DNA of 64,000 nt from Psammoneis japonica (GCA_008632985.1 QPGO01000130.1:124001-188000); one strand, 5' to 3'. Positions 113 to 64,000 are shown, numbered from the stretch's first letter. Translations and numbers: made by a program. Notes: generated by a model not told the origin, from the letters alone.

Positions 113-997
113 GGCACTGCACATGGTTTACATCTTACATGGTTGTTGTTGCTGATATGAATTTTTATTGGTTAGTGTCACCAAGTGTGTGCTGGCTCAT
201 AAAAAAAACACCCACCAGCCAAACAAGAGTGTGGTGGGGGGACAGGCAACCAACTCTGTGGGGGGGCATGCCAAGGGCACTTTTCAGATGACAAGGGTGT
301 GCCAGCAGGACAGCGCATGAGCCAGAAAGTTTGAAAATTTGACAAAGAGTCTCAAATGACAACAATGGCAGCAAAGGAGATTCAACAATGTGAGGAAAAA
401 GCTTGGTGGGAGAAAAAAAAGTGGTGGCTGGTGCAGCGTCGCACAGCCAACGCTCAAATGATGACTTTGACTCTAGCCTCAGTCTCTGACTTCTTGGCAC
501 CTCTCTTTTCCCAGCTGGCCCACCACTGTGAGCTTGTGTTGCACTGACATGTGAGACCAACGCACATCTGCCAGAGAGTGTCCTCCAAGACTCTCTTGGA
601 CTTGCTTCGTTGGCGAGAAAGTTGCGCGCGGCACCATGTTGTCAAGGAAACAAAAAGTGTGCAGACAGCCTGGGGGCACTGGCTGCAGGTGCTCCTGTGG
701 AGCTGCTGATGAGAAAACTCAAATCTCAAAGCCAGCTCAATGATGTGGACAACAGACATTTTGTCAAGCCCCAGCTGTTGTGTGTGGTCACCAGCTGGCC
801 CTGCCCCAGCAGTGCCACAGCCCAAATGTGCTGCTGGCACCGTGCCTTGTTGTTTTGTTTGGGTTGTTGCTCACTTTTCCTGCAACACACATTTTAGTCA
901 ACTCCAGGGGGGGGGATGCTGTGTTTGCCATCAGAGGGCATGACACCAAGGCATGACACACTGACATCATCCCTGGGTGTGGCAAACAAGTCACTGC

Positions 998-1376
998 TGC
1001 AACATGCGTTGTCATGTGCGCATTGTGTGTGTGTGTCCACACATCAAATAAAAGCACATTTCAATCGCACGTCAATCGTGGGTTCGTACGAAGTGCAGAT
1101 CAGTCACACAGAAGTGATCGGATGTCGAGAATCGCAAATGCGATCGTACGATGATGTTGACATCTTGTGTGTCAATGTCAATCGCACCCGGACAATCTGT
1201 CATCACGATCATATTCTCCGAAAGGCCTTTTGTCTGTGGGAGCAGTGCAAAAGGTTTAGGCTGTTGAGAACCCGTTCGGAGAAACCCAAAATGATTGCGT
1301 GGAAATAATTCTTGTAATTTTCACCTTTTGAACTTCGTTCTACTTTCGTTTGCACTCGTTCTTCGAGCATGGTGCA
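998..1376 (+). repeat. 5' LTR
   Basis: TGCAACATGCG...GAGCATGGTGCA, colinear with 5796-6174. Confidence 0.93.
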
Positions 1377-1412
1377 TTGTGTGTGCACACCACAGAAGGC
1401 AATGAGTTCAAG

Positions 1413-2567
1413 ATGAAGCTTTCACCTCATGTGGCCAACGCCAAAACTTCGTTGAGGCAGGAGAAAATCGTCCCTCAACCGCTGGAATCGAACTCCGAGC
1501 CGAAGAGCCTCAAACCGAGCCAGTGCCTCAAGATGGAGCAACGTTTTCATCCCGAGAAGAAGGGTGGCCACACCCACACCATCAATGTTGAGCACTGCAA
1601 GAAACAAGGTGTCCCCAAGCTCATCGAATTTCTCAAGAGCTACGATCAACTTCCAGTGGGCCAGAATGTCAGGAAGCAATCTGATGAGTTTCGTCTCATG
1701 CGCATGTTGCTCCAAGGAGACGCTCTACGTGCTTTCGAGAATGCGGCAGCAAACCTTGAAGACGAATCTGCGGAAGGAAGCTTCGAGAAATGCCTGCAAC
1801 ATCTCACGAGGCATGTGTTTCCCAAGAACGCACTTTCGGTGCAGAAACGTTATTTGCGTCGTGATCTCAAGAAGCCGGAGTCCATGAAAGTACGCGAAAT
1901 TGCTGCTTGGGTCCAGGAAGTCAACGAAGACCTCAAGTTCTATCCTCCCTTTGAGAAGGAACAGAAGATCGAGGACGACGAGCTCAAGGACATCCTCTTC
2001 AACCTTGCACCTCGAAAGTGGCAGCGTCAGTCGACCGTCCAGGGTTTCGAAATTTTGAAACACACCCATGACGAGTTGGTTGAGTTCTTGGAGCGCCTGG
2101 AGGTCGCAGAAGACACATTTGATGGCATTCATGCCAAGGCTGATGGCAGTGGCGGCACTGCATCAAAAGCCAAGAGTGGTTCCCAACGTGGTTCCAAAAA
2201 TGGTCACCAACATGGCACCGAAAAATCTCAGTCCGAGAAGTGGTGCATTTTGTGCGAGAAATCCACTCACAACACGGACAAGTGCTGGTCGATCAAAAGA
2301 CTTGCGAAAGAACGCCGTGGGAACCATGAACCCGACCCGAAACGGCGCCGTTCAAATGGCAATCACACGTGGTCTCGTCGCGATAACGACAACGCCGCTC
2401 GCAAAGAAGAGTTGAATGCCATGGCGATCCAAGCAGTTCAAAAAATGCTCAAAGCGAGTTCTTCGAACAATGATGAAAAACACAAGAGCAAAGATTGTGA
2501 TTCTGACACCCTTGACGAGGAAAATTGTCAGTTTGAAAAAATGACGCGCAGTGACTCTGAGGAATGA
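1413..2567 (+). CDS. gag: Gag of the Gypsy element
   Basis: Long ORF (first ATG at 1413) with the CCHC zinc knuckle CILCEKSTHNTDKC, directly after the 5' LTR. Confidence 0.85.
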   Translation: MKLSPHVANAKTSLRQEKIVPQPLESNSEPKSLKPSQCLKMEQRFHPEKKGGHTHTINVEHCKKQGVPKLIEFLKSYDQLPVGQNVRKQSDEFRLMRMLLQGDALRAFENAAANLEDESAEGSFEKCLQHLTRHVFPKNALSVQKRYLRRDLKKPESMKVREIAAWVQEVNEDLKFYPPFEKEQKIEDDELKDILFNLAPRKWQRQSTVQGFEILKHTHDELVEFLERLEVAEDTFDGIHAKADGSGGTASKAKSGSQRGSKNGHQHGTEKSQSEKWCILCEKSTHNTDKCWSIKRLAKERRGNHEPDPKRRRSNGNHTWSRRDNDNAARKEELNAMAIQAVQKMLKASSSNNDEKHKSKDCDSDTLDEENCQFEKMTRSDSEE

Positions 2568-5500
2568 CTTGCACTGCAAGAGGAGTCTTGCGCTCTGCTG
2601 GACATTAGGAAGCCCAGAAAAAGGGCCAAAGTAATTCACACTAGTCCAGCAGTCGTCGCCTGTATGAGTGCTTCATTGGGCAAGGCGAAAAATGAGCCTC
2701 TGCGCGTTCTCCTCGATGGCGGAACATCGTCAACCACAATTTTGCGCAAATTCACGCGGAAACTCAGAACAAAAGCATCCGCCACCAAACTCTGGGAAAC
2801 CAAAGGAGGGCTCTTCATGACTGACAGTCGATGTAAGATCCAATTCTCCTTGCCCAAATTTGACAAACACAAGATGATTGAAACAACGGCATGTGTTGAC
2901 AACTCCCCTTCTTCTTTGAGTCGTCATGACATGATCATGGGACGCGACTTAATGTCAAGTCTTGGGACAACATTGGACTTCTCGAATGAAGAGATTAAAT
3001 GGGAAGATGCAACTGCTCCTGTGAAGAATGTTGACACACTCTTCGATGCCAATGTTTTTAAGTTGATTGCCGATCACATTGAGGAATCTCATGCAGTGAT
3101 TGGTCTTAATGACAGGGTCAATCGGATCCTTGACTCAGACCATCACGCTGCAAACCTCAACAATGTGACCGCAGCAGCCACTCATCTAACTCCTGAAGAG
3201 CAGAAGCAGCTGAATTTCCTCTTAAAAAGATTTGAAAACCTTTTCGATGGTTCTCTGGGCAAATGGACCGGGAAACCGGTGGATTTAAAGTTGAAATCGG
3301 GCGTGAGTCCGCATCATGCCAAACCATTTCCCGCACCACAAGCCTTGGAGGCGACTGCTCGTAAGGAGGTTGAAAGACCATGCAAGTTGAAAGTCTTAAG
3401 AAAAATGAATTGTTCTGAATGGGCGGCTCCAACCTTCATTCAACCCAAGAAAAATGGTAGAGTTCGGCTCTCACCCGACTTTCGTGAGCCAAACAAGAGG
3501 TTAATTCGCACTCCGTTCCCTCTGCCCAACATTCAGGATGTGCTGCAGAAGCTCAAAGGCTTCATGCATGCAACGTCCCTAGATTTAAACATGGGACACT
3601 GTCATGTCGAATTGACGCCGCGTGCACGTCGCTTGTGCACGATCGTCATGCCTTGGGGCAAATGTGAGTGCTGTAGACTCCCGATGGGAATCTGTGGAGC
3701 TCCAGACATTTTCCAAGAGCACATGAGTGAGCTCATGGCAGGTCTGGAGTTCGTCAGAACTTGCATTGACGACACATTGTGTCTCACAAAAGGTGATTTT
3801 CAAGACCACCTCAAGAAGCTTGAAACGGTGTTCTTGCGCCTGGAACAAGCCGGATTGAAGGTCAACGCCGAGAAGTCCTTTTTCGCTAAACCCGAAGTAG
3901 ACCATCTAGGCTTTCATGTCACCCGCAAGGGCATCAGTCCGATTCCAAAAAAAAGTAGAAGCGATTCACGCGATCGCAACTCCTAAAACTCGCAAGGAAT
4001 TGCGACGCTTTGTCGGTGTGATCAACTGCTGTCGAGACATGTGGCCTCGACGATCTCATGTTTTAGCTCCTTTAGCCAAACTCACTTCTACCCAAGTAAA
4101 GTGGCAATGGACCGAAACAGAACAAAAAGCCTTCGAAAATGTGAAGCGCATCATCTCCAAAGACACACTGTCATCATGCCCGAATTTTAACATGCCCTTT
4201 GAGATGTGTGCCGATGCCAGCAATTCTCAATTGGGGGGCGGTTGTTGCTCAGAAAAACCGACCAATTGCCTTCTACAGCCACAAGCTGAATGGAGCGCAA
4301 ACGCATTGTGCTGCAACAGAAAAAGAACTGTTGTCCACAGTGGAGACGTTAAAAGAGTTCCGCAATGTGCTGTTTGGCCAACAGACAAACATGCACACGG
4401 ATCACAAAAATCTCACACACAAAAATTTCACAACGGACAGAGTCATGCGTTGGCGTCTAATGACAGAAGAACACAGTCCCAAAACAATGTACCTTGAGGG
4501 CAAGGCAAACATTGTCGCAGATGCGATCAGCCGACTTACCATGAAGAAAATAGAACCTGTGGAAACCCTCAGCACAGAAGAGCCAGCTGAAAAGGTCCCA
4601 CCAAAATCCTGCGACAATGTCTTTCCGTTAAATTACAAAGTTCTTGATCACGAACAAAAACGGGACAAAGACATTCTCTCCCAATTGTCAAATGAGACGT
4701 TTCACACGAAGACTTTTCGTGGAGGCGAGCGAGACCGGTTGCTCACATGTCACAAGGACAAAATTGTCGTCCCGAGGACGTTACAAAAGGCAGTGACAGA
4801 TTGGCATCATACGCACCTTCTTCACCCTGGCATAAATCGAACAGAAGAAACAATCTCACAACACCTGTGGTGGTCCACCTTGCGTGAAGACATACGAAAA
4901 TACGTGTCGAGATGTGAGACGTGCCAAAAATTCAAAAAGAAACACAAGAAATGTGGACATTTACCTCCCAAGCGCGCAGAATCCGTGCCATGGGAACGAC
5001 CATGTGTGGACCTCATTGGGCCATACAAAATACGTCGTAAGGGAAAGAAAAAAACCCCAGTCCTGAAATGTTTGACTATGATCGATCCAGCAACTGGATG
5101 GTTTGAAGTTGTGGAAATCCCAAACAAGGAGTCCACAACTGCAGCTGGACTGCTAGAATGAACATGGTCAAGTGGACATCCTTGGCCATCGTCAATTACA
5201 TGTGACCGTGGAAGTGAGTTCATCGGACACCAATTTAGAGAAATGGTGCAAGATGATTGTGGCATTAAAGTCAAGCCTGTGGCCACACGAAATCCACAAG
5301 CAAACGCAATTGTTGAACGCGCACATCAAGCACTGGGGAACATGCTCCGCACATTTGATTTGCAACATGCACCTCTAGACACTGAGGATCCTTTCGCTGG
5401 AATGCTGTCAGCGGTGGCGTTTGCGGCACGTTCTGCGTGTCATCCACTGCGCAAGCTGCGCCAGGACAATCAGTCTTCAACAGAGACATGACATTTGACG

Positions 5501-5769
5501 TCCAACATGTCGCAGACTGGAAATTAATCCAGCAGTGAAAACAAGAAATCATAAATAAAAATGACGCTCGAGAGAATGCTCGACGTGCTCCTTGCACGTG
5601 CAGAGTGGGAGAAAAGATGCCACTCGAGAAAGACTCGCAAAAATTAGAACAGCCCTGTGTTGGACCGCATGCAATGACAACGGCACATGCCAATGGCACA
5701 GCACAGATCAAACGCGGTAACGTCATTGACATTGTCAATGTTCGTTGAACAATGCCGTTTGACGACTGA
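2568..5769 (+). pseudogene. pol: Pol (protease, RT, RNase H, integrase), disrupted
   Basis: LLDGGTS protease motif. RT motifs WAAPTFIQPKK, SLDLNMGHCH, RLPMG and TCIDD (canonical YxDD). RNase H CADAS and EKELLS. Integrase HHTHLLHPG/CETC, VDLIGP and NPQANAIVER. Frameshifts near 3955 and 4237; internal TGA stops near 5159 and 5536. Confidence 0.93.
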
Positions 5770-5795
5770 CTCTAATGTGCAATTAGGGAGGCGAA

Positions 5796-6174
5796 TGCAA
5801 CATGCGTTGTCATGTGCGTGTTGTGCGCGCATGTCTGCACATTAAATGAAAGTGTGTTTCAATCGTGCGTCAATCGTGGGTTCGTACGAAGTACAGATCA
5901 GTCACACAGAAGTGATCGGATGTCGAGAATCGCAAATGCGATCGTACGATGATGTTGACATCTTATGTGTCAACATCAATCGCATCCGGACAATCTGTCA
6001 TCACGATCATGTTCTCCGAAAGGCCTTTTGTCTGCAGGAGCAGTGCAAAAGGTTTAGGCTGTTGAGAACCCGTTCGGAGAAACCCAAAATGATTGCGTGG
6101 AAATAATTCTTATAATTTTCACCTTTTGAACTTCGTTCTACTTTCGTTTACACTCGTTCTTCGAGCACAGTGCA
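5796..6174 (+). repeat. 3' LTR
   Basis: Colinear with 998-1376 and followed by the CTGC duplication. Confidence 0.93.
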
Positions 6175-6424
6175 CTGCTGCCCCACCGCAGCGCAGCGAG
6201 CGCGAGCGCACCGAAGGGAGGAGGGGGGACGGACAGTCCCGAATTTTGGGCGCGCCAAAAAATCAAAGGTGCGCCACTCCCTAGCGTTGAAAAGGTAACC
6301 AGGCTCTGACATTTTTGTAGAATCAAAGAGACGCACGTCATGATGAAACGCTTGGGAGTGGCATGCGAAGATCGCAGAATTTTTTGTCATCCACAAACCC
6401 AAAACACAAAAAAGAGCGTCCACC

Positions 6425-8242
6425 ATGGCCAGCACGACTCCTCCTGCCTCTGCTCGTGCACCTCTTGCTGTAGTCTCCGAGAACAGCAAGCGCAGTGCCA
6501 ATGATGATGATGATGCAAAGCCTGCGTCCAGCGGTGCTGCGACGACGACTCTTTCTCCATACAAGCAACGCATGAAGGAGCTCGAAGATTGCCTCACCGA
6601 TGGCAAGATTCTCATGTTTCTATCGGACGAGATTCTGGAAATTATTCCTGGTAAGCTCGAAGAACTGAACGTTGATGAGATTGAAGACTTGAAGGAAGAA
6701 GAAAAGGAGGCTGCCTACGATTCCATTACGCAACAAGAGGTGGACGAGTACCTGCAAGTGTTGGTGGTCGATCGCGCTCTAGCTGAAAATCAGCGTGAAT
6801 ACTACAAGAAAATCATGTTTGCCGATCCCCGCAACGATGAAGACGATTGTTTCGTCATGTTCAATACGCATTCCAGCTGGTGCATGTTCCTGTCATGCAG
6901 AAACTACTCACGGCAGCCACGAAAGAGATCAACAAGGCTAAAAAGACAATCGAATCATCAGCTGGTACCAACACGAGTAGTACTACTCAAGACGCGGCAA
7001 AAGAGGCATTCAACAAGGCCTTTGCTACGATTATGGCTTGTGATTCCATGGATCATTGGAGGCACGACACGGAATCTCCTGAAGATTGTGAGAAAATCGC
7101 CAAGAAAGTGGGCAAGGTGGCTTCGGATCTCCTTTGGTTTGAAGACTCGGAACTGGGCTTTGTCGACCCCTATTCTAGAAAGACTGTACTTGCGTTCTTG
7201 TCTCGTCTCACTCAAGACTGGTATGAGATTGGTGGAGTCAAGTACAAGAACAAAAAGAACGGTCAGGGACTCGGGCGTTCTCACGCGCCTCCTCCACCAC
7301 CCAAGAAGCAAAAGACTGGTCCAGCCGCAGTCGTTGCGACTTTACCCACCGCTGCTTCCGGCAGCAGCAATACCAACAGCGACGTCTTGGTGACGTTTCT
7401 GAACAACCTTCAAGACAAGAAGAAACTTCGTGAAAAGACCTGTGTTCAACTCAAGATTGCCAGCACGACCAAACCGGAGAAATCGGTACTCGTGGTCCTG
7501 TCGGGGGCGACCGACATGAAGAAAATCAATCAGCTTTGTGCTTATGTTACGGGTCATGCTCAAACCTACGAGTATCATTCTCAGCGTGGCACTGCATCAA
7601 GGGCTCTTATATGAACTTGAGTTGGAAGGAAGCAACATGTGGCTTGCCGCCAAGTCTCTTGCCAAACAGGCGGCAGCCGCAGGCGCAGCCCACGTCGAAG
7701 ACAAGACGGTCAAGATTGTTCAAGTCTTTCAAGGACTCGTAACGTCTCCTACATCCGCCCTCGTCTATGATTCAAATCAAGCTCGTCACATCAAGGCGTA
7801 CTGGGTGACACCACAGGGCGAGCGGTTCGAGATTACGTGTCAGGCCATTATTGGCAACAAGTGTCTGGGCAATCTACGCCCCATGCCTCGTCTTGTCAAG
7901 GACTTGGACGGGTACACGCCCAATGCTCGTACCGGCTTTGGAAAGGGTCTGTACGCGTCCAATCGTTACTTGCAAGGCGATCGTCAAGGACCGTCCTACA
8001 TTGTTGCTCGAGAAACTTCCCAGAGTGATTTGCGCAAGATGGACGACAATTGTCACTCCAGGCCTATTGCGATGAGGATGGAACCATTTCTCATCGAGAA
8101 GGATTTCTCCGTCGTTTCTATTGGGAGGCAGAGAACGTGGCGGCTGCAGGTCTACCGTCTTTGTAACGGTGGACTTTGTTTGCGACCGGTGGCGGCTATT
8201 TCCAATACTCATGGAACGTTTGTCGCCCATGCTCTTTTTTAG
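6425..8242 (+). CDS. Hypothetical protein, apparently one gene split by single-base frameshifts
   Basis: Overlapping ORFs 6425-7393, 6847-7614 and 7538-8242 each look coding in successive segments, with switches near 6890 and 7600. Normal dinucleotide content. No motif recognised, and the 3' end is uncertain. Confidence 0.6.
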
Positions 8243-9012
8243 TGATGTACGTATTCATTCCATGGTAGAACAAAATCGTGACTGTAGTGACGTGATTGGT
8301 TCTACATCGTTTATCCCTGCTTTGCGCTGCCGGTAAGCGAATAGTAGCCCTGTCCACTTAGACTAGTCTAATCCAAGAGAAACTTTCCCTAGCATCACGG
8401 ACATAATCTAGATCGACGCAAGACCGGCGTATTCTGCATTGGCTCTGCGCCAAATATTATATCATAGAACTTGAGTCCTTGGGCGTTGACACAATGAATT
8501 GTTCATTGGCAAGAGGCTCGTCTGCTTGTTTCCGATAATCCTATTCATTTCTTCTTGTGTCAGAGAAGAATTGCACAGAAACCAAGGTGCATCACGATTC
8601 GCCTGCAGGTAGTCATTGGCCCAATAATAGACTTTTCCATGCCGCAGTCTGTACGATAGTGGCACTCCCGGCTTGCGATAGTGGGGGTGTACACTCTCGA
8701 AATTTTCGCGTCACGGCATGAAAGTGGAGGATTTTTGCGCGCGGCTTGTCTTTAGAGCTTACCGACGACGTCGTTCCAGAATGAATGCAACATAAATAAT
8801 GATGTGCTAGAGCAAGTTCCACTTTGCATTGTCGGCCTACTTAGAACATTCGCACCTTCCAAGATGATGCGGATCAACACACATGTAAAACAATTTGTCG
8901 TCCATGCAAAATTTTAATAGGATCCCATGTTTCTTCTATACACAAGTAGAACTGTGGTAAAACCTTTCAAGACCACAAAACTATCTAAAGAGGCTTGCAT
9001 CGATCCGGCTTG

Positions 9013-9537
9013 CTAATATTTCGAACCACCAAAGAAATCGTCGCTGCCTCCATACCCGCCGCCGCCGCTGCCAAAATCTTGGTAAGTCCTCTGTGGGCGA
9101 CCCTGTACATAGGTTCCATCCGGTCCAGTCACATTGATGGCGCTTCTTCTGCCGTTTTCGTCCTCGAGAACCTCGTACTCGACGGGTTCACCGTCCTGAA
9201 CGCGAAAGAAAAAACACGAGTGTGTGAGATGAACATGCTGTAGCATAAAGAATGTCTATAGAAAATTGCATAATCACTCAAAACAAAACACATATGCCAC
9301 GCAATCACGCACCATGAGAGAACGGAATCCCTCAGCATGAATGTTGGAGTGGTGAACAAAGACATCTTCCGAACCGTCGTCAGGCACTAGGAAACCAAAG
9401 CCCTTTTTGGCATCAAACCACTTTACGGTGGCCGAAAGCTTGGCAGGTCCTTCTGTGGAAAAAGCACGGATTCCACTAAACTTTACAGTAAAAGTAGGAG
9501 CGCGCCGAATAGCGGTGGAAGCAAGAACACGAAACAT
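9013..9537 (-). CDS. Cold-shock domain protein with probable mitochondrial transit peptide and Gly-rich tail
   Basis: [13 protein letters not shown] and DVFVHHSNI (RNP1/RNP2). GT-AG intron 9196-9312 joins exons 9313-9537 and 9013-9195 in frame ([15 protein letters not shown]). Confidence 0.93.
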
Positions 9538-10006
9538 GGTTGTAGTCTAGTTGTTGGATCCGATGAGTGCTGTTGTTTGCTGTACCGTATTCCGGCTGCT
9601 GCTGGCTGAAGATTTTGTGGTGGGAATGATCCACGTAGAATATGTACTGCACGCTACGGTGTTTAGCTTGACCATCCATTTTCAATTTTTCAAATGCGGT
9701 GACGGCAAGACTGAACTATTCGCGCGAATATCAGCAGATCGCGCGATTTCAGAGAACAATAATATCTTCGCTTGTGAATATCCATATTACCATAAAGTTC
9801 CCATACAAAATTGAGCATGTAGAAAATGTATTGAAGGCTACGCATCATTCAAACGCACGCAAAAAGCACAAACAGCTGTTTTTGACGCGAACAAAAAGAA
9901 CCGCAACAAACAACAGCAACAGCACAAACAGCTGTTTGTCATTCCAGCATCGAAGCAATAATTCGTAACAGCAAAGCACACAAGCCCTTTCGAAAACATC
10001 ATCATA

Positions 10007-11736: not shown

Positions 11737-11884
11737 GGGACATTGATTAGTATTACAGTAGCGGGGGAAGCTACCAGTAATGTTTGTTCACAAATGAATT
11801 GATAGTCTCTAGGCTGAGGAGGTAACAAGTTGGTATATGTAGCAGGTATTTTGTTTGTTGAATAAGACAGCTTAGCAGTAGCAA

Positions 11885-13086: not shown

Positions 13087-13593
13087 TCAGCTTCGACTTC
13101 ATTTCCATACAGTAGGGCCCTACACTTCCAGAATGACATTGGCTGGGCTGGGGTCTTGGATGCCTTGTAACGGGCTTCTGTAGAGGGGGGGGGGAGTTTT
13201 TCTCCAGAGGTCTCCCCAATCTGTCACGTACAGGCACGTAGTGGCAGTGTGCTGCGTCCATACGGGGAAGCCGGTTTTTTACCGAGATCGCCCCGTCGTG
13301 TCCAAAGGCCTCTATCATTCTCTCTTCCGATTTCATCGGTCTTTAGACCTCGTCTATTTCAATAACAGTAATTGCAATAATTCACGAGCTAAAATCAATG
13401 GATTATACTTTACCGAGTCGAATCATCGTAAAACTCCAAAATCTTCAAAAAAAAAAGCGCGAAGCCAGCCCCCAGCCCCAGCACGGCGACAAACCAAAAA
13501 CTGAACAGCAAGCGACGGCGCTGCTGCTATTCCTCTCTCCCTACTCCTCGTCACTATAAAACCAGCACAACTCCCCCCTCTCTCTCAATCACA

Positions 13594-37523: not shown

Positions 37524-37599
37524 CTCACTGCCCTTTGGTCAATGACTCATCCATGTGGCCTCTAATTGAACCAAGAGTGACTGTTCTCAACAACACCAT

Positions 37600-52100: not shown

Positions 52101-52399
52101 GAAAAGACTTTGTCTGGTCTGAAAAGAAGGGAGTTCGGTTGGCTCTGAAAAGATTGTGTCCATGTCATGTGTCCTGCTCAAAGTGCAAGCTCCACAAATG
52201 GATTGGATGCCATCACACTGCCTGGTGGTTGCCAGCAAGCCTCTTTGCCATCTTGCTTGCTCAGTGGGCAGGATGTGACATGGTGTGACCATTTCAATGT
52301 GTTTGACTTGCTTGTTGTCAAGTGCACTGCATGCAGCACACAGTGAATGAAAACAACACAACAACTGTGGTGTGAAAGTGTGGTGGAAGACTTGACCAG

Positions 52400-53950: not shown

Positions 53951-55310
53951 CCTGCAGACATCTTCACTGGGTCCACTGCACAAACTGGACATTGCCTTTG
54001 TAACATGCGTGCATGGGGATGTCCAGTGTGTGTTCTGGACTGTGCACTTCATTCAACTGGGAAAGAAATTGCCCCATTGGCAACCACGCTCCTGCTGAGG
54101 TCTCTTCCTCTGTTCGAGTCACACCCCACTCCAGTGAGGTGCCCCCAGTCCTCAACCTGCAGACTGGCAGCATGACTCCCCAGTGTTCCATTGTCTTTGA
54201 GACAATTGTTCACTGCCACATCATCAATTGCAGGGGAGAGTGACCTGGCAACAAGCCACTGGGAAGAACTGCATCTGGTGCAATCTTTTCAGATTCCCAT
54301 GGAAAAAACCAGCTGGTCCATCTCAATGACAGCTGGCTGACTCTAGACAAACTGCAGCAATGCAAACAGAGGGAGCGTCACACCCCACTCCAGTGAGGTG
54401 CCCCCAGTCCTCAACCTGCAGACTGGCAGCATGACTCCCCAGTGTTCCATTGTCTTTGAGACAATTGTTCACTGCCACATCATCAATTGCAGGGGAGAGT
54501 GACCTGGCAACAAGCCACTGGGAAGAACTGCATCTGGTGCAATCTTTTCAGATTCCCATGGAAAAAAACCAGCTGGTCCATCTCAATGACAGCTGGCTGA
54601 CTCTAGACAAACTGCAGCAATGCAAACAGAGGGAGCATGCACAAGGTGCTTGTGCCCACATGCTGGGTTTGAACCACCTGCCCCAGACACATTGGCATTG
54701 AAGCAACCAAGGGCTCTTGAGTCACACTGGATCTGCCACAACTGCTGCCTTCTGAGTCCCATCTGCCACACCTGCTGCTGCCTCTGAGTCTCTGCTGAGT
54801 CTCTGCTGCTGGCTCCTTTTCTGCAATTTTGATGACACCAGAACCTCTCCCAACTGCTGTTCCAGAGGGAGCTCCCTCACTGCACCAGTCAAGTTGATTG
54901 GCCAAGAGGGGCAGAGATGGTCTGCAATGCTTGTGGATGAAGCTTTTTTTGTTCCAGTCAACTTACAAGATGAGCTTCATGGAACTGCAGCACAGTTGGC
55001 ACATCTGGCAACTCTGGACACCTGCTTTGACATGGAAACATGCAGCATCAATGATCCCATTGTTTGTGCAACTGCTGAAAAGCACAAAGACCCTGACACA
55101 CACCACATTTGTGTGAAGCTGTGTCAGTCATGTGAAGCTGCTGACAAATGAGTCAAGGTGATAAAAATTGAGATCAACATGCTGCTCCACCATTGTGCAC
55201 GGGATGTGGTGCCAAGAACCTCTGACATGAATGCATTGCCAGGTGCGTGGGCTTTCAAGCCCAAACAACTCCCTGACAGTGCACTTTTGAAGTGTGAAGC
55301 TCCCCACCAG
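53950..55310 (+). mobile_element. Degenerate Ty1/Copia (CoDi-like) fragment: post-integrase region to RT start
   Basis: WGCPVCVLD (for WGCPVYVLD), GKKLPHWQPRS, HSSEVPPVLNLQTGSMTPQCSIVF, DPDT and MNALPGAWAFKPKQLPD. Confidence 0.85.
54118..54636 (+). repeat. Near-perfect tandem duplication of 259 bp
   Basis: Units 54118-54376 and 54377-54636; the only difference seen is one A in a homopolymer run. Confidence 0.93.
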
Positions 55311-55329
55311 TTCACCAAGCAACCACTCA

Positions 55330-56207
55330 GTGTTGAAAGATGAAAGTTCAACTCAGGCTGAAAGCCCTTCTTGGTGTTGGTCTTTTGCTTTGCATTGGAA
55401 GACCTGCGACTCTTGCCACCTCTTCCACAGCCACAACTTTGGCCTTGGTTCTTGCCACCTCCTCTGTTGCTCACAGTGCATGATCTCAGCATTCAATTGG
55501 CTGTGTGTGGGTTGGCATTTTGCTCCAAGCACTCAGTGCTGTGCTTGTGACTCTTTGGAGTGAATGTTGAACCAGCAAGTCAATGTCGCCAAACGGGAAT
55601 CCTCTGAGATCTCCTGTGATGCTTGTTGCACTTGCCTTGGTGGTCTGCAGTGGCCACAGGTTACCTGCAGTGTCAGTGGCCTGGAAGACATGCCAAGAAT
55701 GGCGGTGGCCTTTCTGTGCTTTGAGTCTGGAAGGAATTTCTCTGTTGCATCTTTCATGAATTTCAGTCCGCCGAAGAAACATTCAGAGCAATTGAGACAA
55801 AGTTTGCCTTTGTCAACATTCAGGCATTTGCGTTTTACTGTTGTGGTCTTACTCTGTTCTACTTGGCGTGGCACTGCAGTGGCAGACAAAGATGCAAGAG
55901 AGTGCAAAAGGTGCACCAACTGCTGGTTCAGCTGCAAAAGGCAGCAAGGTTCAATCCGTTTCTGATGCATCGCATCTTCACACTGGAAGCGTTCCTGATC
56001 TTGAACAAGGGGCAATTGGAACCAGCCTTGGCAAAGTTTGATGCTGCAATTGAATGGGCGCGAGAGTTCAAGAGTCCCTGCGACAAGGCCGTTGCCTGTG
56101 AGCACGCCGCGATTTCACTAAAAACGAAATTGACCGCGGTTAACCTGTTTGATCGTTGGGGAGTCGCAGCAAAAGTCGAACAACTGCGGCGCAAGTATAG
56201 TCTTTGA
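55330..56207 (+). pseudogene. Decayed 3' part of an AAA-ATPase/TPR-like 'transcriptional regulator' family gene
   Basis: C-terminus FDAAIEWAREF....KAVACEHAA...FDRWGVAAKVEQL resembles the Y..WGA.AKV tail of that family. The upstream part is frameshifted and TG/CA-rich. Confidence 0.55.
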
Positions 56208-56337
56208 TCGTGAACGCAAACGATGGAGAAAGAAGCGGAAACACGGAAAACACAACCCAATCGAATGTTTAATGGGTGCGTAGTATGCTTTCAATGGCAT
56301 GAGCACTATCATTGTTCATAAATACAACTATGTAAAA

Positions 56338-57660
56338 CTACGCGTACTCGCGGACACCCTTGCTCTTGGCGTATTCGTCCACCGCCACACATCCAGCCTG
56401 GTCCTTCCACACCGCATTGTTCCGACGCAGACAGGTGCGAATGTTCATGCCCGTGGTATCACGCTCCATAATGTCGTGTCCACACTCCTCCACCAGAAAC
56501 TTGACGGCGAGCAAGCTTCCATTCTCGGCCGCCAAGTGGGTGGGAGGTTTCTTGCCAAACACAACGTCGGTGGTGGCATGGGAGTTGGCCCCGTTCTTTA
56601 CGAGCATTCGAGCAAGTTCGACTTGGTTGGTGTAGCACGCCCACGCAACGGGGGCACTGTCGGCTCGGGTGACCATTACCAGGGTCCGTGGATCCGTCGC
56701 CAACCACTCCGCAATCTCGAAATTCCCACGACGTGCCGCCCACTCCAGGGCATTTAGGCCGTATCCACGGACAGTAATGTCGGTAATGTCCGCGATGCTT
56801 CCGTCCGGCTTTGGGCCCGAAATACTAATAACGTGCAAGACCAGCGGTAGGATCTCCTTGGCGAGCTCTATATCATTCAAGGTGCCGCAGGCCAACAAGA
56901 ACTGATTCGTCGGGTGCAACTCCTTGACGTCCGAAAAATACTCGGTGCGTTGAAAGGTTCCGCGCTTCCCGGCGCTGTCTTGTGCCATGGTTCTCTGGAG
57001 CATGGCAAATTTTTGGTCGCCAAACGCTCGACGCAAGTTTTGCTCCGCCGCCGGGGAGGCAAAAAAGGTACCGGGCTGTTCGTTTCCGCGCAATTCTCCG
57101 TTGGTGGAAAAGAAAGTCAGATTGTGGGCTTCTGGATGGTAGCTGTACGAATAGTTCCCGACCCCAGAAGCTTCTGTACATGCGCTGCCCGACTTGGCTC
57201 GTTGCTTCCGCTCCTTCTTGGTGCTTCTGCGGTCGTGCTTGAGCTGTCTGCAAACGAGCTTATGCTCTGGCCAGGCAGCCTTTTGACAGGCCTTGGAGCA
57301 GTACTCAATATTTTTACAGGAGAGGCACTGCTTCAACTCTTCTGTTTCTTCGGCTTTGCCGCACCAACTGCAAAAGGTGCCAGCGGCTTGCATCACGATT
57401 TGGGAGTCGGGATCGGTGCGTTTGTGCAACCCCTCGTGGGCTGCCGCGCGGACCGGTTTGGCCTTTTTCTTCTTGGTATTTCGTTCGTTGGTTGCCGGCA
57501 CAATAGACCGATTGATTTCCTTGCCGGCCTCCACGCAGTCCTTGCATCGCCTCTCGCGGCGGCACATCCATTGCTTCTTGGAAAAGGCGGCTTTCGGCAG
57601 ATGTTCTCCGCACGCACCGCAGAGCTTTTCTTCTTCTCCTTGGCCGTTTTCGGAATTCAT
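56338..57660 (-). CDS. MYND zinc finger plus ankyrin-repeat protein with an N-terminal CxxC domain
   Basis: CSWC...CLSCKNIEYCSKACQKAAWPEHKLVC; ankyrin-like ALEWAARRG and PTHLAAENG; intact 440-aa ORF. Confidence 0.9.
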   Translation of the reverse strand: MNSENGQGEEEKLCGACGEHLPKAAFSKKQWMCRRERRCKDCVEAGKEINRSIVPATNERNTKKKKAKPVRAAAHEGLHKRTDPDSQIVMQAAGTFCSWCGKAEETEELKQCLSCKNIEYCSKACQKAAWPEHKLVCRQLKHDRRSTKKERKQRAKSGSACTEASGVGNYSYSYHPEAHNLTFFSTNGELRGNEQPGTFFASPAAEQNLRRAFGDQKFAMLQRTMAQDSAGKRGTFQRTEYFSDVKELHPTNQFLLACGTLNDIELAKEILPLVLHVISISGPKPDGSIADITDITVRGYGLNALEWAARRGNFEIAEWLATDPRTLVMVTRADSAPVAWACYTNQVELARMLVKNGANSHATTDVVFGKKPPTHLAAENGSLLAVKFLVEECGHDIMERDTTGMNIRTCLRRNNAVWKDQAGCVAVDEYAKSKGVREYA

Positions 57661-59854
57661 AGTAATACGGTCGTCGCTATTCTGTGTTTAACTTTTGATG
57701 TTTCGATCTGTTTTGTAGGTGTAGTAGGCGGCATCCTCAAGTCAAATAAAAAGATACCATGGCAGAACCAATTTTTTCGGACAGGCGGCTGAATGAAGAA
57801 CATTGTACTGTTGTGTAGAATTTGTACAGACCGACAGTACCGTACTAAAAAAGTCTGTCAATCTGTGCGTTATGGGTTTTGGTGAACGCAGGACAGACTC
57901 AACGTCTTTTGCTGTACCATGCGCGTAAAAATTTGGAATGGCACTGACAAAACCCCCAAACCCACTGACGAGCAGACTTTTTTCAGCCACGTCCCCACCC
58001 CAACACTGGATGTTCCATCTCCTGCGGAAGTGCATGACCTCGCATCATGCAGGACATGAGTGTTTGGTGATCCTCGTGTGTGAAGAACACACCGTGTTGA
58101 ACGTTTGTTGGTGCACCAATGCTGGAACATTCACACTGCACCAGCCAGCAGTCGCCCCGGCCGCCCTGCAGGGATGGGTGAGGAGGCGGGAGCTCAGCCG
58201 CCCACTGCACCAACAGAAAGTTTGCATCCCTCCACCCTGCCCCACATGCAGACTCAAGAAGTTTGCAGCACAGCGGTGCCAGACAGGAACCATGGGAGCA
58301 AGAAAATTGGCACTTGGGCCGCGCCCCCATGAGGATGCAACTTGCACACCTCACTGCAGTTCAGCAGGAGCCCATGCAAGAAATGTTGAGCCACCCAGGA
58401 ATCCCAGCATCAAAGTTTGCATCCCCCCAGGAACACAAGGGTGACAAGTGCATGTGGTCAGAGGAACAACAACTGCAAAAAAGTCTGCACCCCCCTGGAA
58501 CCCCCACAAAAAGTTTGCATTCCTTTTTGTGGTGCTCCCTGCACGCCCCACAAGAAAGTTTGCAGCCTTCCACAAATGCAAGTGTGAGAAGGCAAAAAAA
58601 ATGGACAAGTCTCCCCCCTCCATGGCCCAGCCAGGAGGGTGTGACAACAATGACATTCTGCACAAGCGGCAATTGCAAATGAGACATGTTCACCTTTCTG
58701 CAGCTCACAGTCATTGGGTTCACAGGCAGATGGCCTGACTCTCCAAATTCTTTGCAAAAGAAGTGAGAAACAAGATGAAAAGAGGCTGGCTCTGCACCCT
58801 TGGTCTTGCCACAAGACAGTTTCTTGACATCAGCTGAAGTGAGACTGAGCAGACTCCTCAGTCTCACAGCAGCATCAGATGCAAATCTGTCCACTGAACC
58901 GGCTCTTTGTGATTTGATCAATGACAGGAGATGCAAGGGGCTCAGCAGTGTGGTGCCTTCAGAAAACAATTGTGAAGATCACCTTCTCAGACTCTGAAGC
59001 AACAGTTGTTGCACCAGGCTTGTGAAGCAAAAGCGTGCTCTTGAGTTGCTCCAACCATGGTTTTCTCTCTTCAATTAAATCTGCCTGCCATCCCAAATGT
59101 TCTCTCAACAAACACTCTGTGCTGCAGTCAATTTTGCTTCCCAGTTCTTGCCATGCACCAAAAAACCAAAGCAGCAGTTGCTGAAATGCAAGCAAAGAGA
59201 GTCAGCTGTTTGCAGACCTTCACAGGACAAATTCTGAGGAGTGGAGGGACAATCCAACCAACCATCTTTGACCCAGTTGATGGGTTTCAAAATCAAATTG
59301 TGGGTTTCTTTGTCAGCTTGATTCCATTTTTGTGTCTTTGATGATTCAATCAGGTGGTCACATTTTTGAGAACATTTTCTGTTTGGCAACTGCAACAGTT
59401 TCCAGCCACTCCAGTGCTGATTGAAGTCATTTTTTCTGGCTCCAATGTCATCCCCAGAGTGATGCTGCGAGTCATGTGACAACTCAAATTGGGATTGTGA
59501 CCACCTTTTGAATTGCTCTGCATTTGGTTGCAAAGCCCTCTCACATGGGTTGGTGACTTCCACTTCTCTTTTCAGTTGAGAGGAAGAGTGATGAGCATCT
59601 GACATTCACAGATGACTGTTGCCCCGTGCATCATGGATTTGTTGCCATTGAGTCTTCCAGTGATGGCAACCAGAGTTGCATTTCTCAACCACTGGCTCAA
59701 TTTTTCTCCATGATCCTTTGAGAAATCTTCTCACAATTTGCATCTTTGGAGCATCTTGTTGTCCCCTTGCCACATCTGTCACATCCTCTGTGTTGCACTG
59801 TGCAGCCTCAAGAGAGGTCACTGTAATTGCATTGAATTGTTGCACCCCATTTGT

Positions 59855-60175
59855 TGAATTTTTTTCATTGGGGCTGCCAAAACAGGGCATTGGTCTTTGG
59901 AGCAACTTGCAAGGGAGGCAGTTTTTCATGCTGACAATGGGAAGTCTTTCTTGTGCTTTGTTGTCAGTGCCACTAAAAAAAAAAAAGAACTGCTGGTTGG
60001 TTCTTTGAAAATCATCACCATTTGTGTTGCCCTGCCACTCCAGAACACAGAGGGTTGTCATGGGTGCAAGTCTAGAGAATTCCAAAGCAAACCTTCTTTG
60101 TTTCATTGTGTCAGGCTTCATTGGTGTGGGACAACAATGGCTTGTGCTGCCAAGGTCATCATGGTTCTTGACCTC
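59855..60175 (-). pseudogene. Decayed partial copy 1 of the 45341-45865 gene (5' half and upstream sequence)
   Basis: GAGAATTCCAAAGCAAA, AAAACAGGG.ATTGG, GGCTTGTGCTGCC and CATGGTTCTTGACC are shared; MKQRRFALEFSR versus MKQRSFALEFSR. Confidence 0.88.
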
Positions 60176-61244
60176 TCAGCTTTCATTGGTGGATGCAATG
60201 CTGCCAGCAAGCCAAGAAAACAAGAGGCCAAACACAATGAGAGAAATCTCTTGTGGGGGTGGCCAAGCTCTTGCCAGAGTTGCAATCTTGCATGCACGCA
60301 CAAGCAACAGCAGACAGCAGTGCAGATGTGGAAGATGGACAGACAGTGGACAAAACAAGACAAGGCGGGCCAACCCAAGCACCCCCCCTTGCTCTTGGCA
60401 AGCAGTTGGCAACATGGGGTCATTTGCAACAAGCCAGAAATGGTGCCCCACACTGAACCCAGCCCTCTGTTCGTGCAGTGGCAGGGAACAACTCCTTTTC
60501 TTGGGTGTGTGTGAGGCACTCTAGAGAGCCATGGACAGGACCCACTTGTTCACCTTGCCAGCCACAGTTGCTGAAATGCAGGCAAAGAGAGTCAACTGTT
60601 TGCAGACCTTCACAGGACAAATTCTGAGGAGTGGAGGGACAATCCAACCAACCATCTTTGACCCAGTTGATGGGTTTCAAAATCAAATTGTGGGTTTCTT
60701 TGTCAGCTTGATTCCATTTTTGTGTCTTTGATGATTCAATCAGGTTGTCACATTTTTGAGAATTTTTTCTGTTTGGCAACTGCAACAGTTTCCAGCCACT
60801 CCAGTGCTGATTGAAGTCATTTTTTCTGGCTCCAATGTCATCCCCAGAGTGACGCTGCGAGTCATGTGACAACTCAAATTGGGACTGTGACCACCTTTTG
60901 AATTGCTCTGCATTTGGTTGCAAAGCCCTCTCACATGGGTTGGTGACTTCCACTTCTCTTTTCAGTTGAGAGGAAGAGTGATGAGCATCTGACATTCACA
61001 GATGACTGTTGCCCCATGCATCATGAATTTGTCACCATTGAGTCTTCCAGTGATGGCAATCAGAGTTGCATTTCTCAACCACTGGCTCAATTTGTCTCCA
61101 TGATCCTTTGAGAAATCTTCTCACAATTTGCATCTTTGGAGCATCTTGTTGTCCCCTTGCCACATCCATCACATCCTCTGTGTTGCACTGTGCAGCCTCG
61201 AGAGAGGTCACTGCAATTGCATTGAATTGTTGCACCCCGAGTGT

Positions 61245-61563
61245 TGAATTTTTTTCATTGGGGCTGCCAAAACAGGGCATTGGTCTTTGGAGCAACTTGC
61301 AAGGGAGGCAGTTTTTCATGCTGACAACAGGAAGTCTTTCTTGTGCTTTGTTGTCAGTGCTGCTAAAAAAAAAAGAACTGCTGGTTGGTTCTTTGAAAAT
61401 CATCACCATTTGTGTTGCCCTGCCACTCCAGAACACAGGGGGTTGCCATGGGTGCAAGTCCAGAGAATTCCAAAGCAAACCTTCTTTGTTTCATTGTGTC
61501 AGGCTTCATTGGTGTGGGACAACAATGGCTTGTGCTGCCAAGGTCATCATGGTTCTTGACCTC
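61245..61563 (-). pseudogene. Decayed partial copy 2 of the 45341-45865 gene
   Basis: Same segment in the second unit of the 1390-bp duplication. Confidence 0.88.
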
Positions 61564-64000
61564 TCAGCTTTCATTGGTGGATGCAATGTTGCCAGCAAGC
61601 CAAGAAAACAAGAGACCAAACACAATGAGAGAAATCTCTTGTGGGGGTGGCCAAGCTCTTGCCAGAGTTGCAATCTTGCATGCACACACAAGCAACAGCA
61701 GACAGCAGTGCAGATGTGGAAGATGGACAGACAGTGGACAAAACAAGACAAGGCGGGCCAACCCAAGCACCCCCCCTTGCTCTTGGCAAGCAGTTGGCAA
61801 CATGGGGTCATTTGCAACAAGCCAGAAATGGTGCCCCACACTGAACCCAGCCCTCTGTTCATGCAGTGGCAGGGAACAACTCCTTTTCTTGGGTGTGTGT
61901 GAGGCACTCCAGAGAGCCATGGACAGGACCCACTTGCTCACCTTGCCAGCCACTGTCTGAGCAGCAGCAGCAGCAGCACATGAGACATTGCTTGGATCTG
62001 TCTGCACATGCTGTGTGCACACAAAAGTCATGTTTGTGCATCCACAAACTTGCAGCCATTGAGGTGCAGCAACATGACTTGCATGTCTGTTTGCACATGT
62101 GCCATGTGTGCTCACAGATTGCACTCATGTGTCTACAGACTTGAAGCAATCAAGGTGCAGCAACATGACTGTGTGATGTGTCATTGAGATGCAGCCCAGC
62201 CATGGTGGTGATAAAGAATCTCTAATTCCTGGGGTGCATGGGGATGGCCAATTTTGATCCTCAGATTGTTGCTCACACATGCCACATTGTGCACTTTGTC
62301 AGGGGAGTGAAGTGTTCCCAAGACATCAAAAAGAGAAGAAATGGGCAAAAACCTCTGTTTTGCATGAGCAATGTGGTGGTGACTCCATGTCCATGCTGTG
62401 ACTGGGCCACCAAGAGGTGTGCTGAAACATCTGACACCATGGTCTCCCTTCATTGCAAGCTTGAACAAGCCAGAAAGGTTCTTGAAAGCACACACACCCA
62501 AGTGAGTGACAATCACAAGCACCATGGGGTCTGCCTTGGTGGCAGCAGAATTCTTGCAGCATGCAGACTGCAAAGAATGGGCTTGAAGGTTTTCTGGCCC
62601 TGACAACCATCTTCTCCTCTACACTGGTGGTGGGGGTGACAGCAGCAAAATTGTGATGGAGCCATGATTGCACATTGGCTCACAGCAAATGGAAAACAAC
62701 ATTGGCCACAAGCTTGTCCTTTAACTTGCAAAGTGAGTGGGTGAGAGGAGAAAAGCAAAAAAGGCATTGTGAGAAGAAGATGTTGAGTGCATGAGTGTTT
62801 GTCTTTTTCTTCTTGTGTCACAATCTTGGTCCTCTGTTGACACAAGTGGAAGCCAGCTTCACCCCTCAGCTTGCACAGCTGAGTGCAAAATGTGGAGAAA
62901 GTGGGCAACTCAAAAACTCTGCCTGCATCACCAGCTGGGGGATCAATTGCAAAAGATTTGAGCAGGGTTTGAGTCAGTGCAGCCAAGCACTGGCTTGCTC
63001 CTGGTGGTGTTCATTTTTGTCATTGTGCAGATGTTTTCTTGTGCCATTCTCCTTTTGTTGCAGTGCAGCACAGAATGAGTGCAAAAGTCACAAAACACCC
63101 TGCCAAGCTGCTGGACATTTTAGCATCTGCCAGGTGCAAGCAGTGCCACACAAGCAGAGTGGCAGGCAGTCAGCACATCTCATGCAAGTTGAGGGAAAAG
63201 TGTTTTAGAAAATGACTTTTGTTTGACTGGGCCAAAGTGGCTTGCAGAGTTGTTGCCAACACAAGCAGTCTCATGCCCCACAGTGCAAAGCTGTGCAGAT
63301 GTGCATCATGCTCAATTTCAACATTTGGGGCTTTGCCACTGGCCCACCCACCCACCCAAAATCAACTGCCCTCCAACTGCATGGCAAAGCTTTGGGCATG
63401 CTTTTCCAATGTGTGAAAACTCAAAATTCATCAATGGCAAAAATGGTGCTCATCTCTGCAATGCTTGCCTCAAAGCCATCCTGCCAACAACCCCCATCCC
63501 ATGACTGACATGCACATCCCATGGTGTTGTGACAAAAAAAACTTCTTCAGTCTGCATTGTGCACTGTCAGGTGACAAATGCAGCTGGTTGTTGCAGGTTG
63601 CATTGTGGAAATTGTGAGACTGGTTTGTCTCCATGAGAAATGGAGTTGAGTGAGCAGGGGTTGTGCAAATTCTTCTGTTGGCTCACATTTTGAATCACTT
63701 CTCTGATCCTGTTTGCACATGAAATCATGACACACACATGCACATGCTGCTTCATGTGTCAACAGCATGGGGGAGAGTTGCACATGCTGTGCTGTTCATC
63801 CTGAACATCAAGAAGAGTTGCATGCTGGATGATGGTGCAAGGACTTGCAAGTCTGTCAGGATGTGCAAGCTGCATGGTTGTTTGCTGTTGTGGTTGTGCA
63901 TTTGGTTCACTTGGCAATGCATTCTTGCAGCTGGGACTGGGAATGATCAACCCCTCAAATCTCATGCTCATTGCTGGTTGTCATGCTGGAGAGCCACTTT

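Follow-up and report, generated by a model that had tools for sequence, protein, structure and literature searches.

Regional TpA hypermutation and CpG decay in a 64-kb window of probable diatom DNA: a further case of a recently described mutational signature

Why should over half of a 64-kb stretch of DNA have lost almost all of its TpA dinucleotides, when the genes between the affected parts have kept theirs? The question is raised by a 64,000-nucleotide stretch from Psammoneis japonica (GCA_008632985.1 QPGO01000130.1:124001-188000), here called the window and numbered from its first base. In the window, five blocks poor in both TpA and CpG alternate with gene intervals of normal composition, and a Ty3/Gypsy long terminal repeat (LTR) retrotransposon sits at the edge of the first block. 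We consider it probable (roughly 0.8) that the blocks are genomic domains, probably of a diatom, in which two separate transition processes acted once the sequences were in place: a fast hypermutation of TpA and a slower decay of methylated CpG.

Across the entire window, the observed/expected (o/e) ratios are 0.25 for TA, 0.52 for CG, 1.58 for TG and 1.54 for CA. The depletion is regional, with edges that are sharp within tens to hundreds of base pairs. Pooled, the five blocks (34,097 of 64,000 bp) contain 121 TA (0.35% of dinucleotides, o/e 0.05) and 231 CG (0.68%, o/e 0.12), with TG at 11.85% and CA at 11.47% (o/e near 1.9 for both). The pooled genic intervals (24,723 bp) contain 878 TA (3.55%) and 1,420 CG (5.74%), with TG at 7.14% and CA at 7.32%; here, the o/e ratio is 0.51–0.57 for TA and 0.97–1.04 for CG. 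Many 500-bp bins in the blocks have 0–3 TA and 0–5 CG; genic bins have 10–27 and 20–45, respectively. The four dinucleotides sum to 24.35% in the blocks and 23.75% in the genic intervals, the near-equality that conversion of TA and CG into TG and CA predicts, and the GC content of the blocks is unchanged, near 0.48 (range across blocks 0.45–0.51). Thus, TA and CG have been swapped for TG and CA, with no other exchange. The same shift is visible in stop trinucleotides: TAA and TAG together fall from 16.2 per kb in genes to 2.7 per kb in blocks, and TGA rises from 16.4 to 24.6 per kb. A sequence-only reading that preceded this analysis had described regional loss of TpA and CpG with an excess of TG and CA beside normal genes, and these counts bear it out.

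As an outside baseline we used 79 environmental loci coding for reverse transcriptases related to that of the window's Gypsy element, divided into 1,175 one-kb windows. The TA o/e ratio ranges from 0.43 to 1.06 per locus; in the one-kb windows the median is 0.76, the 1st percentile 0.40 and the minimum 0.26. The corresponding one-kb values are 0.00–0.18 in the blocks and 0.10–0.31 in the window's own Gypsy element.

The first block, B0 (1–997), adjoins the Gypsy insertion site and is poor in both dinucleotides (o/e: TA 0.20, CG 0.25, TG 1.79, CA 1.72). Block B1 (19378–31139) is TpA-poor from 19378 and CpG-poor from ~19778, with a right edge at ~31120–31140 that is sharp for both; over 19701–31000, the o/e ratios are 0.07 for TA, 0.12 for CG, 1.88 for TG and 1.86 for CA. 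A run of ~14 C lies at 31053–31066, ~55 bp inside this edge. Block B2 (34789–43639) is TpA-poor throughout, with a CpG-poor core at ~35540–42810 and intermediate CpG at both margins (35001–43400: TA 0.03, CG 0.12). Block B3 (48278–56118) is TpA-poor from 48278 and CpG-poor from ~48490–48640 to ~55590 (48501–55900: TA 0.05, CG 0.12), and holds a diverged tandem array of ~200-bp units at 52.4–53.9 kb. Block B4 (57927–64000) is TpA-poor from 57927 and CpG-poor from ~58323 (TA 0.03, CG 0.08), and continues past the end of the window. The gene interval at 6179–19377, which includes a USP-type ubiquitin hydrolase, HA-domain open reading frames (ORFs) and other genes, serves as an internal control; the intervals 31141–34788, 43760–48277 and 56119–57926 are similar in composition. 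Pfam domains in the genic intervals are UCH, HA, Ank, MYND and Sulfatase.

Can the loss of TpA be separated from the loss of CpG? The Gypsy element, on the plus strand at 998–6174, indicates that it can. Its LTRs lie at 998–1376 and 5796–6174, and its target-site duplication is CTGC (994–997 and 6175–6178). Pfam domains (RVT_1, RT_RNaseH, Integrase_H2C2) and a match to the Ty3 reverse transcriptase 4ol8 (E 3e-30) identify it; the ORFs lie at 1332–2564, 2568–3983 (reverse transcriptase), and 3910–4494 and 4145–5158 (RNase H, integrase zinc domain). The flank to the left of the target-site duplication is an old block poor in TpA and CpG, and the flank to the right has normal CpG; hence, the insertion took place at the edge of a block. 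TpA in the element is down by about two thirds and CpG is kept (TA o/e 0.24, CG o/e 0.93), so TpA loss occurs without CpG loss. The sequence-only reading had set TpA loss apart from the decay of 5-methylcytosine at CpG (5mCpG), and the Gypsy element upholds that separation.

The two LTRs of an element are identical at integration. Those of the Gypsy element now differ at 28 positions over 379 bp. All 28 mismatches are transitions, 27 fall in pyrimidine–purine (YpR) dinucleotides, and the 4-bp target-site duplication is intact. Identity rises from 92.4% to 100% when bases are recoded as purine or pyrimidine. The paired YpR sites are TA/TA (6), TA/TG (6), TA/CA (1), CA/TG (9), CG/CG (24) and CG/TG (2), such that 25 of the mismatches fall at TA-derived positions, two at CpG and one elsewhere. 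The nine CA/TG doublets each imply an ancestral TA that changed independently in the two LTRs, on opposite strands; a CpG ancestor for them is negligible because only two of the 52 CpG copies have changed, with 24 of the 26 aligned CpG sites intact in both LTRs. By contrast, at least 25 of the 44 TA copies have changed, a lower bound since double hits in the same direction are invisible. By rate, TA has therefore outpaced CpG about 20-fold and other sites (represented by a single position) by a factor of hundreds, with very small counts for CpG and for other sites.

The reverse transcriptase tells the same story at the level of protein. Its ORF has no Tyr in 472 residues, and the median among 120 homologues is 3.7%. 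At the 12 alignment columns where at least 60% of these homologues have Tyr, the window has His at six, Cys at four, Phe at two and Tyr at none; median Tyr retention among the homologues is 0.93. Other conserved columns are largely kept: Pro at 17 of 17, Gly at 16 of 17 and Arg at 12 of 14, with 188 of 257 conserved columns identical overall. Even the catalytic YxDD box has become CIDD (YLDD>CIDD in the alignment to the Ty3 enzyme). TAY>CAY and TAY>TGY are the two outcomes of a TpA transition, and the similar numbers of Tyr>His (6) and Tyr>Cys (4) illustrate that both strands are struck about equally. Since a transition at TpA cannot make a new stop codon, reading frames stay open and the protein is ruined by missense. 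Two public Gypsy reverse transcriptases have the same pattern: P0270 keeps two of 14 conserved Tyr, with 10 as Cys or His, and P0318 keeps six of 12, with four as Cys or His. The signature therefore exists in other sequences. Together, the LTR differences, the doublets and the Tyr conversions place the change on DNA, after insertion and on both strands.

This timing bears directly on the idea that editing preceded integration, either as ADAR-like A-to-I editing of retrotransposon RNA or as editing of cDNA, with the changes copied in each round of retrotransposition. The clearest case in the window is indeed a retrotransposon, and ADARs favour a 5ʹ U, as noted in the Discussion of a preprint on Bigelowiella natans to which we return below (10.64898/2026.01.13.699255). 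However, both LTRs are made from one template, yet they differ at 25 TA-derived positions, nine of them opposite-strand doublets. TpA loss also extends 0.2–0.9 kb past CpG-poor cores into flanks that are not part of any element, and a segment of block B4 that does not look like coding sequence has been converted. The near-equality of strands, and a preference for the 3ʹ base in the order T>C>G>A rather than for G, also fit poorly. We therefore regard editing before integration as highly improbable.

Paralogous sequences within the window give the direction of change for the blocks. A plus-strand segment of normal composition at 45582–45910 is an unconverted paralogue of two segments of block B4 (59832–60156 and 61222–61544). 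Opposite its nine TA, the block copy has CA seven times and TG twice; opposite its 12 CG, it has TG or CA at 10. When this segment at 45.6 kb was compared with its block copy as possible coding sequence, one frame gave an alignment of 78 aa with only 35% identity and the other gave none that convinced us, so we have treated it as non-coding. The two B4 segments belong to a tandem duplication with a unit of ~1.39 kb (59175–60568 and 60565–61956) that carries GUN4-like ORFs on the minus strand. The duplicates are 97.4% identical, and 99.5% identical after purine/pyrimidine recoding. Their 34 mismatches include four CA/TG doublets, six cases of CG opposite TG or CA, and three of TA opposite CA, which implies duplication before conversion was complete. 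Recoding raises the identity of another internal block duplicate from 82.7% to 94.7%. Divergence between internal block duplicates is thus mainly transitions. Beyond local tandem duplications and a few short pairs, comparison of the recoded blocks with each other revealed no homology; short matches were disregarded, since BLAST E-values lack calibration for an alphabet of two letters. The sequence-only reading had also listed copies of host genes among the targets. The tandem GUN4-like ORFs and the conversion of the 45.6-kb paralogue at 59.8 and 61.2 kb agree with this in part, although the paralogous segment itself does not look like coding sequence.

Is a mutator needed at all? The blocks could be foreign or specialised DNA that was always low in TA and CG, or their composition could reflect selection or GC-biased gene conversion. 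Block sequences lack identifiable homologues, so their ancestral composition is not fixed by comparison. For the Gypsy element and the B4 paralogue, however, this explanation is already contradicted. Relatives of the Gypsy element have the TA ratios of the environmental baseline, and its conserved Tyr codons have been converted; the paralogue pairs display TA>CA/TG directly; and the differences between duplicates, LTRs included, are overwhelmingly transitions. Moreover, gene conversion is not dinucleotide-specific, and where no coding function is recognisable, selection could not strip out 95% of TA. We give an explanation with no mutator almost no weight. The LTR pair, the Tyr columns and the paralogue all support a second process, restricted to particular loci, that removes TpA by A:T>G:C changes on both strands, as the sequence-only reading had supposed.

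The mutations also have a marked flanking-base preference. Relative to the 79 environmental loci, survival of TA in the Gypsy element is lowest for ATAT (0.04), followed by ATAG/CTAT (0.08), ATAC/GTAT (0.15), ATAA/TTAT (0.26), CTAC/GTAG (0.27), GTAC (0.33), CTAA/TTAG (0.35), CTAG (0.36) and GTAA/TTAC (0.37), and is highest for TTAA (0.59). Survival in blocks relative to genes runs from 0.006 (ATAC/GTAT) to 0.54 (TTAA), with GTAC (0.026) ranking lower than in the Gypsy element. The order is broadly similar in the two: contexts containing ATA are lowest and TTAA is highest. The context effect is significant for both comparisons (blocks against genes, chi2 142.7, p 3e-26; Gypsy element against environmental loci, p 0.004). 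In the 25 LTR events, the changed A is followed on its 3ʹ side by T in 11, C in nine, G in three and A in two, and hence by a pyrimidine in 20. This flanking preference is a palindromic one, with RTAY sensitive and YTAR resistant (R, purine; Y, pyrimidine).

The TpA-poor zone reaches beyond the CpG-poor zone by 0.2–0.9 kb at six of the seven visible edges; the seventh, at ~31.12 kb, is sharp for both. The widest margin depleted of TpA only is at 43500–44500, to the right of block B2, where CpG is normal or high (31–40 per 500 bp) and TA is scarce (6–8 per 500 bp). This margin overlaps an ORF at 43910–45088.

Could the blocks be an artefact of sequencing or basecalling, in which modified bases of heterochromatin are miscalled and the true DNA retains TA and CG? 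Strand-dependent miscalls would also leave either TG or CA at random at a given position, which is the pattern of the LTR doublets, and the library type of the supporting public runs is not on record. Nevertheless, one such run, X1, contains 92% of the 31-mers sampled from 14001–24000, and its contigs cross the blocks over 6,739, 1,229, 1,252 and 1,723 bp at a k-mer depth of 64–97, similar to the 61–70 in neighbouring genes. Each of these contigs has 0–12 differences from the window. That they depart from it at 0.2–0.8% of positions, mainly by transitions, means that the assembly was not simply copied into them. In our judgement, contigs of such length and depth are unlikely to come from noisy long reads of 2019. 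The 17 variant sites listed inside block B1 are CG opposite TG or CA (8), CA/TG doublets (3), TA/CA (1), other transitions (4) and a transversion (1), as a second haplotype or strain of a still-decaying region would look. The Tyr>Cys/His pattern of the public protein P0270 also argues against miscalling, as does the signature in B. natans, which was obtained with Illumina NovaSeq (10.64898/2026.01.13.699255). A basecalling artefact is thus unlikely, to the point that we scarcely credit it.

A second public run, X2, whose library type is likewise not on record, has depth in 11 of 30 bins, none of them in a block, and its contigs cover just gene intervals within 17001–37000. Contigs of X2 and X1 share a joint flanked by GT..AG, from 18530 to 18995, with 13 unmatched letters between, too many for a clean splice. 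X2 could represent an RNA library.

How does the window compare with known systems? The sequence-only reading had taken the process to be undescribed, and on this point it is overtaken by the literature: the same TpA>TpG/CpA hypermutation has been measured in the chlorarachniophyte B. natans (Mettrop et al., 10.64898/2026.01.13.699255). In 15 mutation-accumulation lines, 231 of 302 nuclear single-nucleotide mutations fell in one nucleocytoplasmic large DNA virus (NCLDV) insertion and one virophage insertion; of these 231 de novo mutations, 230 were A>G or T>C changes, every one at a TpA. In the viral regions the rate reached ~6e-7, compared with 3.5e-10 elsewhere (~1000-fold), and only some lines were affected. 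Coding sequences low in TpA were enriched for reverse transcriptase and DDE domains, and an ADAT2 homologue was proposed as the enzyme. The accessible portions of the preprint are silent on diatoms, CpG and flanking context. Apart from this preprint, our literature search found no report of TpA>TpG/CpA hypermutation, and none concerning diatoms; in the accessible parts of another paper, PMC4504042, TA is mentioned only as a nucleosome-excluding dinucleotide.

The likeness to the B. natans data is close. In both cases, the changes are almost only A>G or T>C (here, all 28 LTR differences are transitions, 10 of 12 Tyr columns are now His or Cys, and nine of nine TA are converted in the paralogue), TpA is the target and yields TpG or CpA according to strand (here, 25 of 28 LTR positions), the mutations are confined to particular regions beside ordinary genes, and the TpA rate far exceeds that of other sites, which for the window is a relative estimate from LTR divergence alone. 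The two cases differ in other respects. The B. natans targets are viral insertions; in the window they are one Gypsy retrotransposon and four large blocks with no recognisable viral or transposon domain. The B. natans preprint describes de novo mutations in two viral insertions that still retain TpA as 3.3% and 9.2% of dinucleotides; the window has a fixed, near-saturated signature over half of its 64 kb, coincident with a strong CpG depletion of which the accessible preprint text makes no mention. Flanking-base preference and LTR-based timing come from the window and are absent from that text. B. natans is a rhizarian, and the window's named homologues are from diatoms, on another branch of the supergroup. 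We conclude that the window is a further case of a recently described kind, not a categorically new system. It extends that kind to a second lineage and to a much larger scale, with a dated retrotransposon and several measurable properties. What appears to be new is the flanking-base effect, with ATAT most mutable and TTAA least, the reach of TpA loss past the CpG-poor zone, and the probable diatom lineage.

The closest classical analogue is repeat-induced point mutation (RIP) of ascomycetes, which runs in the opposite direction. RIP makes C:G>T:A changes, turns CpA/TpG into TpA and leaves AT-rich, stop-rich DNA; it is triggered by duplication and mutates both members of a duplicate. Like RIP, the process in the window makes regional, dinucleotide-biased transitions on DNA in situ, riddles a transposon, and leaves sharp blocks beside normal genes. 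Unlike RIP, it destroys TpA rather than creating it, as the sequence-only reading had recognised, leaves GC unchanged (0.48), and creates no stop codons; moreover, one paralogue (at 45.6 kb, with nine TA and 12 CG) is untouched and high-copy sequence is spared, although both samples are small. Deamination of 5mCpG in the blocks, which are putatively methylated, accounts for the loss of CpG and part of the gain of TpG/CpA. The removal of TpA is beyond its reach, and the Gypsy element separates the two signatures. Decay of 5mCpG thus explains only the CpG half and is insufficient for the whole. Editing of animal retroelements by ADAR or APOBEC enzymes shares the clusters of deaminase-type transitions and, for ADAR, the 5ʹ U preference. 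However, these enzymes act on RNA or on cDNA before integration, and on one strand, whereas the changes in the window are post-integration and on both strands; and APOBEC makes G>A/C>T changes, opposite to the direction here. ADAR also prefers a 3ʹ G.

Under our preferred reading of two processes, the first is a fast, TpA-specific A:T>G:C change that gives TpG when the plus-strand A is hit and CpA when the minus-strand A is hit. It is restricted to silenced-looking, gene-free domains and the Gypsy retrotransposon, extends a few hundred base pairs past the CpG-poor core, favours ATA/TAT and leaves TTAA, CTAG and TAA/TTA largely alone. Genes are disabled through missense (Tyr>His/Cys and others) with no creation of stops. 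The second process is the ordinary, slower decay of methylated CpG to TpG/CpA. The domains are presumably heterochromatin or other silent chromatin, and the process may serve defence. Because the signature matches that of the B. natans mutation-accumulation lines, we read the window as a second and far more extensive case.

What chemistry might underlie the first process? Tentatively, and at rather less than even odds, we favour enzymatic deamination of adenine, in which A becomes I and is then read as G; the enzyme would be TadA/ADAT2-like and drawn to silent chromatin. ADAT and TadA enzymes deaminate A34, always after U33, and would thus have a natural preference for 5ʹ-TA; this substrate and the proposal made for B. 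natans are our grounds for preferring such an enzyme. The same targeted TpA hypermutation could instead proceed through thymine: TET/JBP-type oxidation to 5-hydroxymethyluracil (5hmU) or 5-formyluracil, followed by mispairing with G or by error-prone repair, would give T>C. An A>G change on one strand is indistinguishable from T>C on the other, so this route is equally compatible with the sequence data. The palindromic RTAY preference would suit an enzyme that reads double-stranded DNA, and the events are not clearly coordinated by strand. Dinoflagellate DNA carries 5hmU preferentially at TpA, and 5-formyluracil is misread as C. However, to our knowledge neither 5hmU nor base J has been reported from diatoms, Pfam reveals no TET/JBP gene in the window, and adenine deamination is the sole proposal for the signature in the published text available to us. 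We consider the thymine route unlikely.

Several observations weigh against the overall reading or against parts of it. All of it is drawn from fixed differences, not de novo mutations, in one 64-kb window. The run X1, for which platform and library type are not on record, may be the assembly's own sample, and its contigs amount to support, not proof. The 3ʹ preference of T>C>G>A is not the 3ʹ G expected of ADAR. Clustering of events by strand, as expected of a processive deaminase on single-stranded DNA, is not significant among 26 codon-inferred events in pol (runs test, z −1.18), and a run of converted Tyr in the reverse transcriptase, HHHHH-CCCC-H, is only suggestive of it; in the blocks, runs tests on the order of TG and CA (z −2.2 to +1.5) indicate no more clustering than in genes. 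The lack of comparable depletion in the 79 environmental Gypsy loci (lowest TA o/e 0.43 per locus, 0.26 per kb) means that the process is not a general one. Nor do the window's Pfam matches contain a deaminase or another candidate enzyme, as the sequence-only reading had also remarked.

The content of the blocks is a further difficulty. Among all stop-to-stop block ORFs of at least 60 aa (the block members of a 124-ORF window set, plus 280 more), Pfam found no transposon or viral domain, and no Copia or tyrosine recombinase (YR) domain. The sole matches are the two GUN4-like ORFs in B4 (E 3.8e-8, 34.0 bits, above the 29.2 cutoff; and E 3.3e-5, 24.5 bits, below it), the terminal part of a UQ_con gene, at the edge of B2, and a weak CBL. 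A tblastn search of the window with 10 Gypsy pol homologues gave 31 matches, all in the Gypsy element and none in the blocks. The lack of matches in the blocks is unsurprising, given that Tyr codons, CGN codons for Arg and others containing TA or CG have been lost. The blocks are also mostly single-copy at a threshold of at least 85% identity. "Foreign DNA" and "defence" are thus assumptions as far as the blocks are concerned. The sequence-only reading went further than these data allow when it called the blocks repeats; and of its claim that Gypsy, Copia and YR elements are hit alike, one Gypsy element stands, with no Copia or YR domain by Pfam and no Gypsy relic in the blocks by tblastn.

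Conversely, a sequence that does appear to be repeated has escaped. The segment at 31675–33008, which adjoins block B1, has no Pfam match and many indel variants; its summed word depth in X1 is 2,294–2,745, compared with ~60–150 elsewhere, with up to 19 contigs at one place. It is unmutated (TA o/e 0.54–0.72, CG o/e 0.91–1.21), another point against the overall reading. Perhaps it is an element that is young or active; perhaps it belongs to a non-coding multicopy family that the process does not reach. The intact 45.6-kb paralogue and the sparing of this high-copy sequence, small samples both, show no dependence on copy number.

The remaining features concern the host. The ubiquitin-hydrolase ORF has three named homologues among the 120 listed, all from diatoms (Attheya, a Bacillariaceae metagenome-assembled genome (MAG) and Nitzschia), with 39–46% identity. 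HA-domain ORFs, which we take to be linked with diatoms, and the GUN4-like ORFs fit a photosynthetic stramenopile. With moderate confidence, these homologies mark the window as diatom-like; it is not from Bigelowiella. Scans with Rfam and for tRNAs gave no matches in the window. The named homologues of a minus-strand sulfatase ORF (46422–47612) are all bacterial MAGs (Bryobacterales, Verrucomicrobiota, Gemmataceae; 39–49% identity), and the best unnamed one has 55% identity; the gene may be of bacterial origin. It is adjoined, in the same normal interval, by a TA-rich 31-bp tandem repeat (46059–46159; 3.3 copies, 98% matches) with 55 TA in its 500-bp bin.

What would such a process mean for diatoms and their relatives? 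If the signature is truly that of a diatom, TpA hypermutation is not the curiosity of one species, and could be a widespread defence, or a mutator linked to heterochromatin, in lineages of the stramenopile–alveolate–rhizarian (SAR) group. Some diatoms are genetically manipulable, which could ease the search for the responsible enzyme, and the window adds testable properties: a rate ~20 times that of CpG decay, a far higher mutability of ATAT than of TTAA, a reach past the CpG-poor core, and independence of copy number. Annotators should take warning, too: mutated elements keep long ORFs that lack Tyr, and older blocks evade Pfam and BLAST, such that repeat content is underestimated. A bolder proposal, which we think rather doubtful, is that diatoms and chlorarachniophytes share an ancient system of TpA adenine deamination (or thymine modification), guided by silent chromatin and preferring RTAY/ATA, that would be a mirror image of RIP and would kill transposons and integrated viruses by missense, with no new stop codons; the same deaminase, acting on both A and C, may speed the loss of CpG. 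If so, this system would be a major influence, so far unrecognised, on the composition of protist genomes rich in repeats.

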